The translations under genes were made by a program, and so were the position numbers. Of a stretch of 64,000 bases of DNA, positions 8,370-29,271 are shown one piece after another; positions within the stretch are counted from its first letter, which is position 1, and every line of letters starts with the position of its first letter. The DNA lies in IMG/VR virus record IMGVR_UViG_3300035208_002115; one strand, given 5' to 3'. This DNA is from a virus. Taxonomy: Duplodnaviria; Caudoviricetes. Below the pieces are notes generated by a model, which was not told where the DNA came from, ran no database searches, and saw only the letters and a program-made list of their open reading frames with translations.

Positions 8370-8385
8370 TTTTATAAAAAATTAG

Positions 8386-8458
8386 CGAGCCAGACAGGAC
8401 TCGAACCTGCGACCAATGAATTTAAAGTCCATTGCTCTACCAACTGAGCTACTGGTTC
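8386..8458 (-). tRNA. tRNA with UUA anticodon (ochre suppressor), tRNA-Lys-like body, no encoded CCA
   Basis: GAACCAG TA GCTC AGTTGGTA GAGC A ATGGA CT-TTA-AA TTCAT TGGTC GCAGG TTCGAGT CCTGT CTGGCTC G; full cloverleaf with one A3.C70 mismatch; anticodon at 8425-8423. Confidence 0.92.
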
Positions 8459-26869: not shown

Positions 26870-27277
26870 ATGAGTTTAAATATGTCATTTATTAAAAATT
26901 ATAACATTTTTATAAACGAAAATATATCTGATGTTAAATTTATCAAACAATATATAGAAAAAACAAATCCACATACTGGTTCAAGAGATGCGTTTCAGGG
27001 AATAGGTCGTTTATCGGATTTTACTTGGAATGTTAAACAAACTTTAATTCAACCAGATGATAAAAAAATAGATTTGGATGATTTATATCCAGCATCTAAA
27101 TTAGATGTTAAGCGATATAAAAAAGCCTATTTAAAGGGGAGTGAATTTCCACCAATAGTACTGGTTGACAAAGGAAATAAATATACTATTTTAGATGGCG
27201 CACATAGATTGAAAGCTGCTATTGAATTGGATGTTCCAATAAGGGCATACATTGGTTATGAAATAAAAAATAAATAA
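26870..27277 (+). CDS. ParB/sulfiredoxin-like N-terminal domain protein
   Basis: FPPIVLV....YTILDGAHRLKAA. Confidence 0.75.
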   Translation: MSLNMSFIKNYNIFINENISDVKFIKQYIEKTNPHTGSRDAFQGIGRLSDFTWNVKQTLIQPDDKKIDLDDLYPASKLDVKRYKKAYLKGSEFPPIVLVDKGNKYTILDGAHRLKAAIELDVPIRAYIGYEIKNK

Positions 27278-27296
27278 TTTACATTTTTTAACATTT

Positions 27297-27372
27297 TTTG
27301 TCATTATGTCAGAAAAAGGTTTTATATTTGTCACGATTTATTAATTAAAACATTTTGGTACGAAATTCGTAC
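27297..27372 (+). promoter_or_regulatory. Bacteroidota-type promoter (TTTG...TATATTTG) plus palindrome GTACGAAATTCGTAC upstream of pth2
   Basis: TTTG 27297-27300; TATATTTG 27323-27330; palindrome 27358-27372. Confidence 0.55.
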
Positions 27373-27401
27373 ACAATAAAAACAAACAAAATTATTGCAT
27401 T

Positions 27402-27761
27402 ATGAAAGAAACATAAATTTACAACAGACTTTACGTAATCACTCGAAGTGATTTACATCCTTCTACTCAGGCGGTTCAAGCCATACATGCTGGTATTCAA
27501 TTTCAGCATGAACACCCAGAAATTTCAAAATCATGGAATGAATTATCTAATTATTTAGTCTTTTTGTCAGTTAATGACGAAAGGGAACTCCTATCTATTC
27601 ATTCTAAAGCAACTCAACAAGGTATTAAAGCGAGTGTTTTTCAAGAACCCGATTTGAATAATCAGGTTACTGCTATTACATTAGAACCAAGTTCTGATAC
27701 GAGAAAACTATGCTCTAATTTACCCTTGGCATTAAAAAACGTAAGTTTTAACAAAAATTAA
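27402..27761 (+). CDS. pth2: Pth2-family peptidyl-tRNA hydrolase with in-frame UAA at codon 5 (readthrough or AUU start required)
   Basis: MKET*IYNRLYVITRSDLHPSTQAVQAIHAGIQF...W...NYLVFLSV...FQEPDLNNQVTAITLEP...LPL; the ORF track captured only the C-terminal 65 aa. Confidence 0.8.
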
Positions 27762-27771
27762 TTTTAAAGTT

Positions 27772-27816
27772 ATGAAAGACACATAAATTTTCACACGAGG
27801 TTCACCAAGTCCATAG
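27772..27816 (+). promoter_or_regulatory. Leader minigene MKDT-UAA-IFTRGSPSP-UAG, in frame with the downstream gene
   Basis: TATGAAAGACACATAAATTT versus TATGAAAGAAACATAAATTT at the pth2 start (19/20 identical). Confidence 0.65.
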
Positions 27817-27888
27817 TTAAAAATTAGGATTTTGAACAAAAATTATTTAAACAAAAATTATTTAAAAACAAAAAACAAAAATTTAATT

Positions 27889-28350
27889 ATGGAAACATTA
27901 GTAAAAAATGACGTAAGATATTCAGTAAGTGCTGAATCTTTAACAGAAAGAATCAAAGAAAATGTTAATACAATCGATAGCTTTGTAAAGAAAAACGGTT
28001 ATCAGTTAACAAACATAACCGAATACAATAATAAATTAAAAGATAATAATTATCTTTTGGGTATTCAAGTATTAATTTCTAAATTATCTCTGAATCAGAG
28101 AAAAAAATTAAGGAATGCTATCAATAGGATTTTCAACAATCCAACTTTAAAAAATGTAAATTACTTTTTACATATTTTATATAGCAGAGTCTTAAAATCT
28201 GACCAGAGAGTTAAGATTAAAAAGAGCGAACAAGAATTAGCCATCGAAAAGGCCAGAAAGGATTGGAAACTATATAGAGATGAGGCCGAGAGATTGAGAT
28301 TAGCTTATAAAGAATTGAAAGGTGATTTCTACAAAAACAAAGTAAAATAA
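27889..28350 (+). CDS. Basic helical hypothetical protein downstream of pth2
   Basis: ATG 27889 (METLVKN); K/R-rich C-terminal helix. Confidence 0.65.
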   Translation: METLVKNDVRYSVSAESLTERIKENVNTIDSFVKKNGYQLTNITEYNNKLKDNNYLLGIQVLISKLSLNQRKKLRNAINRIFNNPTLKNVNYFLHILYSRVLKSDQRVKIKKSEQELAIEKARKDWKLYRDEAERLRLAYKELKGDFYKNKVK

Positions 28351-28449
28351 AATATTTATGCGTTGTAGAACCTATAAACACTATTTATCGATTGTAATAT
28401 CGATAAATAGCGTGATAAATAGAATTATCACCGAAATACGTGATAAAAT

Positions 28450-28477
28450 AAAAAGAGGGTTTTTGACCCTCTTTTTT
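28450..28477. terminator. Bidirectional intrinsic terminator
   Basis: AAAAAGAGGGT-ttttg-ACCCTCTTTTT. Confidence 0.75.
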
Positions 28478-28868
28478 ATTTCACTATTGTAAATTTACTT
28501 TTAATAGCTGAATCTATACCATCTAAAGAATTTTCACCACCAATAAGAATAAAAATTTTATTTTTCTTATTTATAATTTCAAGAGCATCATTTCTAACTT
28601 CAATATCTGCTTTATCAAATTCTTCGAATACATTAATATCATATTTTTTATAAACTCTTTCCAATTCTCCACCCATCAGCATACTAAGCCTTATGACACT
28701 ATATTTTTTTCCTAAATCTGATAATTTTTTATCCAACTTTGTTATAAGTCCAGTTCCAATTTTATTATAAACAAAAATAGGACTGGTTTTTTTATCTATC
28801 AAATTAATAATATCGTTTATTTTATTATCAGTTTTACTAAAGTCCTCAAAAAGTTTTAAATGTTCCAT
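28476..28868 (-). CDS. Degenerate AAA+-like domain protein with CTS-like N-terminus
   Basis: MEHLKLFEDF; broken Walker A (YNKIGTGLIT), FEEFDKAD Walker-B-like, DSAIKSKF. Confidence 0.45.
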   Translation of the reverse strand: MEHLKLFEDFSKTDNKINDIINLIDKKTSPIFVYNKIGTGLITKLDKKLSDLGKKYSVIRLSMLMGGELERVYKKYDINVFEEFDKADIEVRNDALEIINKKNKIFILIGGENSLDGIDSAIKSKFTIVK

Positions 28869-28899: not shown

Positions 28900-29271
28900 T
28901 TATTGAAAAATAAATTTCACATTATAATCTTTAATTGTAGTTGTTATATACATTATATCCTGAATAGTTCCTTCAAAAATTTCTATACTAATATCATATT
29001 CCATTTGTGTTAGTTCTGGTATATATATTACTATTTGGTCAGTAATTATTTTTTTAATTTGTTTGGCTGGTACTTTAGTTTTCCATAGATAATATTCTAT
29101 ATCACATCCCATATTCGGGTCACCCAATACCTCACCTTTTCTTGAAAATAATAACATTTCCAACTTTTGAATAATAACATTGATAACATTATCTTCAATT
29201 ATATATTCTGAATTATATTTAGGATGACCTTCATATATTATATAAATATCTTTGAAATCACGAATAGCCAT
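28900..29271 (-). CDS. Baseplate wedge / sheath-initiator protein (T4 gp25-like)
   Basis: LLFSRKGEVLGDPNMGCDIEYYLW. Confidence 0.8.
   Translation of the reverse strand: MAIRDFKDIYIIYEGHPKYNSEYIIEDNVINVIIQKLEMLLFSRKGEVLGDPNMGCDIEYYLWKTKVPAKQIKKIITDQIVIYIPELTQMEYDISIEIFEGTIQDIMYITTTIKDYNVKFIFQ

Follow-up and report, generated by a model that had tools for sequence, protein, structure and literature searches.

A two-stop leader upstream of a megaphage gene family is a candidate sensor of stop-codon suppression

In a 64,000-nt stretch of DNA (the window) from the 675,678-bp virus record IMGVR_UViG_3300035208_002115, a megaphage, a miniature open reading frame (ORF) with two stop codons lies at 27772-27816, directly upstream of and co-oriented with a gene encoding a protein of 153 amino acids (aa), ORF153. 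This leader, we propose, is probably translated, senses nonsense suppression and in this way sets the translation of ORF153, which would make it a suppression-dependent translational attenuator. The leader is conserved; its residues are constrained at the level of the peptide; its first stop codon (stop1) matches the anticodon of the suppressor tRNA encoded by the phage; and the start codon of ORF153 is sequestered by a conserved, covarying pairing with the RNA at or just after its second stop codon (stop2). The leader and the regulated gene are arranged as follows:

27772..27786, plus strand: leader mini-ORF part 1 with the sensor stop, ATG AAA GAC ACA (MKDT) followed by stop1, TAA (27784-27786)
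27787..27816, plus strand: leader part 2, behind readthrough, ATT TTC ACA CGA GGT TCA CCA AGT CCA (IFTRGSPSP, 27787-27813) followed by stop2, TAG (27814-27816)
27889..28350, plus strand: ORF153, the regulated gene, 153 aa, from a family of 191 cluster representatives

The reading MKDT-UAA-IFTRGSPSP-UAG, put forward in an earlier note as an arrest-like peptide exposed only after readthrough, was confirmed base by base. The codon directly before TAG is CCA, which makes Pro the last residue before the stop, and part 2 is, as judged from its sequence, a diverged copy of the family motif [K/R]-[P/G/S/A]-P-stop. A 72-nt spacer separates the leader from the ATG of ORF153 at 27889. The leader patch had also been described as GC-richer than its surroundings, and so it is: at 27793-27816 the GC content reaches 0.50, versus 0.10 for the spacer (27817-27888) and 0.27 for the window as a whole (26-27%), the rise being due to the Arg, Gly, Ser and Pro codons. 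The region 27278-27900 is 100% identical in two contigs from other samples; therefore, the stops are not assembly errors. The nearest named relatives of the genome are the uncultured huge-phage assemblies LR756500, LR756501 and LR756504 (462-735 kb).

Relatives of ORF153 were collected with HMMER from 1.84 billion representatives, which yielded 191 clusters, and their loci by an alignment-driven scan of IMG/VR, which yielded 44 loci; three more were added from GenBank records. Inspecting the 230 nt upstream of every ORF153 homologue, we found the mini-ORF device in about 40 megaphage loci, so that conservation in homologues, on the absence of which the earlier note would have given up its claim, is now in hand. 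In the relatives, the device usually opens with an ATG and one to six codons before TAG; a further one to six codons lead to a basic residue, which is followed by a small residue or Pro, by a final Pro and by TAA. Examples, with a slash for stop1 and stop2 following the last residue, are MF/IKPP, MS/SRPP, MKKL/IIERPP, MKDT/IINRPP, MKDT/VRQRGP and MK/IIRGPT. The strict pattern M-x(1-6)-stop1-x(1-6)-[K/R]-[P/G/S/A]-P-stop2 was present in 38 of 48 loci, within 260 nt upstream of the ORF153 homologue. Its density was 3.34/kb in the 240-nt upstream zone versus 0.012/kb elsewhere in the loci, both strands counted (about 280-fold), and two of the three matches elsewhere turned out to be real leaders before gene starts that had been misplaced. 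With a slightly relaxed motif the leader was found in 45 of the 48 loci, giving 39 unique sequences. When both strands of the 676-kb genome were scanned with the pattern, the window leader was the only one of its kind; likewise, in 109 kb of two relatives and in the contig of locus L027, the sole matches stand before ORF153.

In all 39 unique leaders at least 4 codons lie between stop1 and stop2, and 25 consist of M plus one codon before stop1. The spacer to ORF153 is 52-155 nt in most relatives, and the leader occurs in all three frames relative to ORF153. Within the window, the leader frame beyond the TAG at 27814-27816 is indeed stop-free up to the ATG at 27889, as had been pointed out, and, given the distribution of frames across relatives, this in-frame run looks like a matter of chance. 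A readthrough fusion of leader and ORF153 was accordingly rejected as a conserved feature, the frames being random and other stops intervening in relatives. The homologue P0002 is 76% identical to the ORF153 of the window. A single-protein locus search of IMG/VR or JGI metagenomes returned no close relatives of the window leader from which conservation of RGSPSP could be read, and an exact-pattern scan for a window-like leader gave one chance match inside another gene and none in metagenomes.

We then compared codons with residues at the end of the 39 unique leaders. Arg (AGA, AGG, CGA, CGC) or Lys (AAG, AAA) stands at position -3. Position -2 has Pro in all four codons, Gly, Ala or Ser, the last from both TCN and AGY, and position -1 has Pro, again with all four codons. 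Switching between the codon families of Arg and of Ser while the residue is kept is a signature of peptide selection. The motif Pro is directly followed by the stop in 32 of 38 unique relatives, and in three the end is Thr-stop. An ATG is present in every leader, and a GGAG-type Shine-Dalgarno (SD)-like run lies 4-18 nt upstream of 19/39 leaders versus 1/39 ORF153 starts. This pattern of sequence conservation favours selection on the peptide and hence a translated leader. Strong SD-like runs (GAAAGGAGG) stand 15-20 nt before the leader ATG in L008, L010, L013, L016, L018, L020, L022-L024, L032, L034, L037, L041, L044 and L048. Bacteroidota generally lack SD pairing, and such runs would be striking if the hosts were Bacteroidota.

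A C-terminal Pro is reported to slow termination (Hayes, Bose and Sauer 2002, as cited in PMC12856214). Arg-x-Pro-Pro-type cores arrest ribosomes with few requirements for the upstream sequence (PMC12992588), and this arrest is not relieved by EF-P (PMC12992588; PMC10951233). On these two grounds we infer a pause at stop2.

Immediately upstream of the leader lies a gene with the same gate design:

27402..27761, plus strand: Pth2-family gene, MKET-TAA(27414-27416)-IYNRLYVITR..., ending 10 nt before the leader ATG

The gate was present in 24/24 relatives with a readable 5' end (L001, L003, L009-L050, L052 range). It takes the form of ATG, 1-8 codons, an in-frame stop (TAG; TAA in the window and L027) and then Ile or Val, with the stop at codon 3-10 across relatives. 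Counting as TAA-gated only a kept ORF with a mini-ORF and TAA upstream, no in-frame ATG and a recognisable product, we found Pth2 to be the only convincing case in the window genome. The starts of Pth2 and of the leader in one genome are often near-identical (18/19 nt in the window, with a single change; 14/14 nt in L027). There are exactly two copies of the 19-nt cassette ATGAAAGAMACATAAATTT in the window, at the Pth2 start (27402) and at 27772, and the whole 675,678-bp genome has no more than these two. What had been called a cloned MKDT-UAA cassette does exist as two near-identical copies, and these are better read as two members of one gating design, because in several genomes the start of Pth2 looks like the leader. 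The 18/19 nt in common would also suit a decayed, functionless duplicate of the Pth2 5' end, or a chance ORF; this explanation is contradicted by about 40 loci, including many with Pth2 350-850 nt away or absent, and by the about 280-fold enrichment, and we consider it extremely improbable. Overall, a Pth2 homologue lies upstream of ORF153 in 28/44 loci, and ORF153 is linked more tightly to the leader and the suppressor tRNA gene than to Pth2. In L003 and L009 there is no leader, and ORF153 starts within the end of the TAG-gated Pth2, the two genes sharing 22 nt; such an overlap would give ORF153 the same dependence on suppression by another route.

Of the 40 tRNA genes in the genome, a single one encodes a suppressor, with anticodon UUA:

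8385..8458, minus strand: tRNA(UUA), ochre suppressor with a Lys-like body, the only suppressor among 40 tRNAs

This tRNA is the presumed input of the switch. Of the unique relatives, 37/39 have TAG as stop1, and TAA takes its place only in company with a linked suppressor tRNA of anticodon UUA. The pair stop1/stop2 is TAG/TAA in 35 unique leaders (amber-type) and TAA/TAG only in the window and L027 (ochre-type). A tRNA(CUA) gene lies on the same strand within the 2.8-kb locus in about 30 loci, most often right behind ORF153 and in some cases ahead of Pth2 or the leader; one complete relative that has no such gene in the vicinity encodes tRNA(CUA) elsewhere in its genome. L027 has the same arrangement as the window, with tRNA(UUA) directly downstream, TAA as the Pth2 gate and the leader MT-TAA-VNKPP-TAG. 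In a tree inferred by maximum likelihood from 40 ORF153 proteins, L027 pairs with the amber-type L018 as its sister (support 100/91), deep within a clade of amber-type loci, and the window is placed elsewhere; constraining the two ochre lineages to one clade made the tree 44.8 log-likelihood units worse (AU test, p=1.6e-4). Judged from these sequences, anticodon, Pth2 gate, leader stop1 and leader stop2 changed together, twice. This joint change would be hard to explain unless stop1 is read by the phage tRNA and stop2 has to be a stop that this tRNA decodes poorly. The suggestion that the UUA suppressor reads the UAG by wobble runs counter to the pattern, in which stop2 became the non-cognate codon in both ochre lineages. 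The base after stop1 is a purine in 38/39 leaders; a purine after a stop is a context that favours suppression.

Additional observations concern the suppressor tRNAs and their use. In L024 (231-608) and L034 (175-546), Pth2 carries a second in-frame TAG inside the domain (EFP, then the stop, then IY) at a position occupied by Glu or Gln in relatives; on this sequence evidence, TAG is truly decoded in the amber relatives. The CUA tRNA genes are sometimes two in tandem (loci L008-L051, L001, L002; e.g., L010:1680-1753, L018:1733-1804, L023:1688-1840). The suppressor tRNA of the window genome lies 19 kb off on the opposite strand, unlike the linked CUA genes. Because a TAnnTTTG-type promoter motif precedes the suppressor tRNA in at least L002, co-transcription with the tRNA is not established. 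Derivation of the ochre tRNA from an amber tRNA via C34U was unsupported, the UUA tRNAs being Lys-like and the CUA tRNAs diverse. Global recoding of TAA in the window genome was rejected as well: TAA ends 53/73 long ORFs in the window, and, when the genome is read with the standard code, 94% of it is covered by stop-to-stop ORFs.

The region around stop2 was predicted to pair with the start region of ORF153. In the window, both the minimum free energy (MFE) structure and the centroid structure from RNAfold contain this helix:

27810..27821, plus strand: anti-start strand UCCAUAGUUAAA (last Pro codon, stop2 and the next 5 nt), the pairing partner of the ORF153 start region
27882..27893, plus strand: start strand UUUAAUUAUGGA, holding the ORF153 AUG (27889-27891) and forming 12 bp with 27810-27821, one of them G-U
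27822..27881, plus strand: A-rich spacer inside the long-range helix, 10% GC, with a 2 x 15-nt tandem repeat at 27835-27864

The 12-bp pairing with its one G-U was created by the change of stop2 from TAA to TAG. The energy of the window duplex is -12.7 kcal/mol, which 0/200 shuffles reached. In many loci the bases after stop2 are GTTTCCATAA, the reverse complement of the ORF153 start TTATGGAAAC. In MFE folds of the leader-to-start segments, the start region pairs at or just after stop2 in 26/35 unique loci folded. We also scored, against shuffles, how well the 33 nt around stop2 form a duplex with the 24 nt around the AUG. The median energy was -11.4 kcal/mol versus a shuffle mean of -4.1; the duplex was at the 5% level of the shuffles in 31/36 loci and at the 1% level in 23/36, and the stop2 segment outscored every other window of the spacer in 24/27 loci. 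The anti-start and start strands of the same locus paired better (-10.6 kcal/mol) than strands taken across loci (-8.0 kcal/mol; permutation p=2e-4), and compensatory changes give A-U, U-A, G-C and C-G pairs at positions -1, -2, -4, -5 and -7. Two layouts occur. One, which the window shares with nine other loci, has stop2 itself paired to the AUG at offset 0 (U of stop2 with A of AUG); in the other, the base opposite the A of AUG is at +9 to +13 downstream of stop2. As modelled, both are within reach of a ribosome with stop2 in its A site.

The effect of such a ribosome was modelled by forcing its footprint single-stranded and computing the cost of opening the start region. For the free RNA the median predicted cost was 4.8 kcal/mol; a ribosome placed on stop1 raised it to 5.8, and one on stop2 lowered it to 1.6 (Wilcoxon p=3e-10). 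The spacing of at least 4 codons between the stops is just enough to hold the stop1 ribosome clear of the helix. Conserved, covarying pairing is also what an untranslated RNA element would show, one in which only the structure (anti-start helix and hairpins) is kept and the mini-ORF is incidental. In such an element, the synonymous and family-switching codon changes that preserve Arg/Lys, Ser and Pro would have no place, nor would the invariable ATG and the SD-like runs that favour leaders over ORF153 starts (19/39 versus 1/39). Moreover, both stops change along with the tRNA anticodon, and a search of 27200-28550 against Rfam gave no family match. We therefore regard an untranslated element as very unlikely. 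A local hairpin between the Pro codons and a downstream GGUG was confined to one subgroup and discarded as not conserved.

Several sequence details were noted around the helix. The tandem repeat at 27835-27864 is a perfect 2 x 15-nt repeat, AACAAAAATTATTTA, within the spacer loop, and words like AACAAAAATTA also stand before the Pth2 start and before the leader in the window. A small hairpin (5 bp, 7-nt loop) can form at 27770-27786 between UUAUG at the leader start and ACA plus stop1 (CAUAA); hairpins of this UUAUG/CAUAA type are also possible at the Pth2 start (27400-27416) and in the MKDT/MKDS-type leaders of L036 and L049.

Taken together, these features suggest the following sequence of events. 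Without an active suppressor tRNA, ribosomes initiating at the leader AUG would be released at stop1, the UAA at 27784, after making MKDT; across the loci, the leader would in this state be a minigene of two to seven codons ending at stop1. A ribosome at stop1 would be too far upstream to touch the helix 27810-27821/27882-27893, the AUG of ORF153 would stay buried and the gene would be off. With tRNA(UUA) present, some ribosomes would read stop1 as sense (probably Lys), translate IFTRGSPSP and reach the stop2 UAG inside the helix. Owing to slow termination after the C-terminal Pro, a ribosome on stop2 would hold the anti-start strand open, freeing the A-rich start region so that ORF153 could be translated. 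Pth2 is gated by the same stop at codon 5, and both Pth2 and ORF153 would then be expressed only under active suppression.

The same RNA architecture would serve if a ribosome arriving at stop2 simply melted the helix or handed over to the adjacent AUG, without true arrest, the basic-Pro-Pro end having another purpose or fine-tuning the dwell time. Stop2 pairs directly with the AUG in 10 loci, as unmasking or reinitiation would allow, and the long-range coat/replicase pairing of MS2 works by translation-driven unmasking. Left unexplained by this alternative is the amino-acid conservation of the last three residues across about 39 leaders; in addition, SD-type loci have the anti-start 4-17 nt past stop2, where only a ribosome parked on the stop could cover it. 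We think it unlikely. Another alternative takes termination itself as the input, instead of or besides the suppressor tRNA: release factor would compete with tRNA at stop1, hydrolysis at the Pro-stop2 would be limited by release factor, and ORF153 and Pth2 would respond to failing termination. It draws on the fact that both decision points are stop codons next to a gene for a peptidyl-tRNA hydrolase, and on the minimal ORFs (M plus one codon in 25/39), which resemble minigenes causing peptidyl-tRNA drop-off, such as lambda bar. The tight match between stop1 and anticodon, on the other hand, points to the tRNA as input, and we give a release-factor or termination-stress sensor only a small chance of being correct.

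Several points weigh against the proposed suppression sensor. Leader translation, readthrough, the pause at Pro-stop and the activating direction are inferred. The window peptide, RGSPSP-stop, is the most deviant member of the family and falls outside [K/R]-[P/G/S/A]-P-stop, and leader peptides of 7-15 residues are far shorter than classical arrest peptides. The amber-type loci L018 and L010, by comparison, have a cleaner KPP-stop end and a stronger helix. In the window, the modelled opening cost is 4.4 kcal/mol free, 4.7 with a ribosome on stop1 and 2.8 with one on stop2, a modest unmasking, and the overall fold is unexceptional (z=-1.47). Four loci (L002, L024, L032 and L034) keep the leader and show no anti-start pairing. 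L038 has TAG for both stops (MQ-TAG-INSNRSP-TAG), and stop2 of L047 is TGA. An efficient ochre suppressor would be costly in a genome with TAA ending 53/73 genes. Wobble may let the UUA anticodon read UAG as well; in the ochre lineages the distinction between the two stops would then blur, and in the window an N-terminally extended ORF153 would also result. As for two of these exceptions, the spacers of L002, L024, L032 and L034 have GGUG right after stop2 and then a conserved stem, AAUCAYUAUC…GAUARUGA, which may be a different read-out of the same leader; the ORF153 homologue of L047 appears to be TGA-interrupted, which could reflect opal recoding or a pseudogene. On balance, the claim of a readthrough-exposed, Pro-ending, arrest-like peptide that controls the downstream gene has gained strong comparative backing, and the side claims attached to it (the frame continuing into ORF153, wobble reading, partnership with Pth2) have not.

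The working principle is erm/secM-type attenuation combined with trp/his-type tRNA sensing; the new part is the input, suppression of a leader stop. As in the ermC/ermB, secM-secA and mifM-yidC2 leaders, a short upstream ORF lies on the same mRNA, and a ribosome parked at a set codon melts the structure hiding the downstream initiation region, an event that for the phage is predicted from the model. The occluding structure that overlaps the footprint of the stalled ribosome in those systems has its computed counterpart here at stop2. Unlike those leaders, which respond to a drug or to secretion force, the phage leader would respond to suppressor-tRNA readthrough of an early stop; its arrest-like segment would be translated only after readthrough and the peptide has only 7-15 residues; and the AUG itself is predicted to pair within its helix, a closing stem formed over long range around a 50-155 nt loop, with no SD at the regulated gene. 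The trp, his and pheST attenuators likewise have sensor codons in the leader that report one charged tRNA, with alternative RNA pairing setting expression. The match of the sensor codon to a specific tRNA holds here too, TAG going with tRNA(CUA) and TAA, in two separate lineages, with tRNA(UUA). In contrast to trp, his and pheST, the phage sensor codon is a stop and the tRNA a phage suppressor, so that lack of the tRNA leads to termination rather than stalling, and the output is most likely translational rather than a transcription terminator.

In the RAPP-like peptides (ApdA, ApdP and ApcA; RAGP in SecM), a basic residue, a small residue and Pro also stand at the C-terminus of a small upstream ORF. 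The exact cores RAPP, RGPP and RAGP are absent from the leader of the window, which reads R-G-S-P-S-P. Most relatives carry [K/R]-P-P, R-G-P or R-S-P, and their basic residue precedes the last Pro by two positions (by three in the RAPP class); R-x-P-P fits only L017 (REPP) and L040 (RNPP). Unlike the RAPP-like peptides, which lie ahead of protein-localisation genes and usually bear a signal or TM segment at the N-terminus, the phage leader has no signal peptide and no Sec/YidC gene downstream; by sequence, it is outside the RAPP family in the strict sense. Pro-stop pausing in TnaC (Pro24-UGA) and YbeL-PP is similar in that a P-site Pro beside the stop slows release. The prfB gene (RF2) also uses an early in-frame stop to sense termination versus alternative decoding, whereas it does so by +1 frameshifting within its own gene and senses RF2; the phage uses tRNA readthrough in a separate leader controlling another gene. 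Lak, crAss-like and other recoded phages (code 15 / code 4) are phages of the same kind, with phage suppressor tRNAs and in-frame stops that are proposed to delay expression until the tRNA is made. Borges et al. (preprint 10.1101/2021.08.26.457843), in the main survey of recoded phages, described in-frame stops inside late genes, with no mention of leaders, attenuation or peptidyl-tRNA hydrolase; unlike those phages, the window phage has an ochre rather than an amber suppressor, and TAA is still its main terminator.

The two genes flanking the leader were characterised by domain search and structure prediction. After readthrough of the codon-5 TAA, the window Pth2 matched PF01981 (E=5.6e-9; 36.7 bits versus a cut-off of 23). 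Its AF2 model (pLDDT 94.9) resembled archaeal and human Pth2 in Foldseek (2zv3, 3erj, 1q7s and 1xty; E=1e-8 to 1e-5, TM 0.72-0.76), and we assign the gene, on domain match and predicted alpha/beta fold, to the PTH2 peptidyl-tRNA hydrolase family. ORF153 was predicted to be all-helical and soluble (AF2 pLDDT 94.2), with a long basic C-terminal helix, where the earlier note had placed a K/R-rich one. ORF153 has no Pfam or PHROG family and no sequence relative in PDB below E=0.004. Foldseek against PDB gave nothing at E<=0.001, VIA-align wide gave only generic long-helix matches (Z<=5.5), and the ESM Atlas held nothing above TM 0.40 by structure (TM<=0.40) and no usable match by features. As a partner of Pth2, a role previously suggested for ORF153, it has synteny alone behind it (28/44 loci); the predicted complex of the two scored 0.00, which counts neither way.

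The surroundings of the unit include one further candidate element and two weak domain matches:

28450..28476, strand not assigned: terminator-like hairpin closing the Pth2-leader-ORF153 unit

The gene upstream of Pth2 (26870-27277) has a weak match to a ParB-like N-terminal domain (phrog_1033, E=3e-5), and at 28900-29271 on the minus strand the baseplate wedge protein gp25 (PF04965) is matched weakly, at E=0.002, which falls short of the curated cut-off.

A full-text literature search found nothing comparable to a leader that senses stop-codon suppression. Phages that reassign a stop in standard-code hosts must time the change, and in the literature searched no dedicated control element for this timing was described. 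If our reading is correct, the leader would be a natural nonsense-suppression sensor in which the decisive codon is a stop read by a phage tRNA, coupled to a Pro-stop pause and a start-masking helix, and it might provide a compact synthetic-biology part for detecting suppressor tRNA activity. The circuit would have been remade for UAA on two occasions, in genomes where TAA still terminates most genes. The Pth2-type hydrolase and the uncharacterised ORF153 family are thereby nominated as components of the code-switch machinery. Speculatively, and with a low but not negligible likelihood in our estimation, Pth2, leader, ORF153 and suppressor tRNA could form the control unit of a genetic-code switch: the leader would detect the first suppression events, ORF153 would reinforce suppression (e.g., by counteracting the release factor, its competitor at stop1, or by helping the suppressor tRNA), and Pth2 would clear peptidyl-tRNAs left by failed termination. 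If so, positive feedback would make the change in stop-codon reading sharp and irreversible, and the two independent amber-to-ochre conversions would mean that the circuit can be retargeted to another stop.

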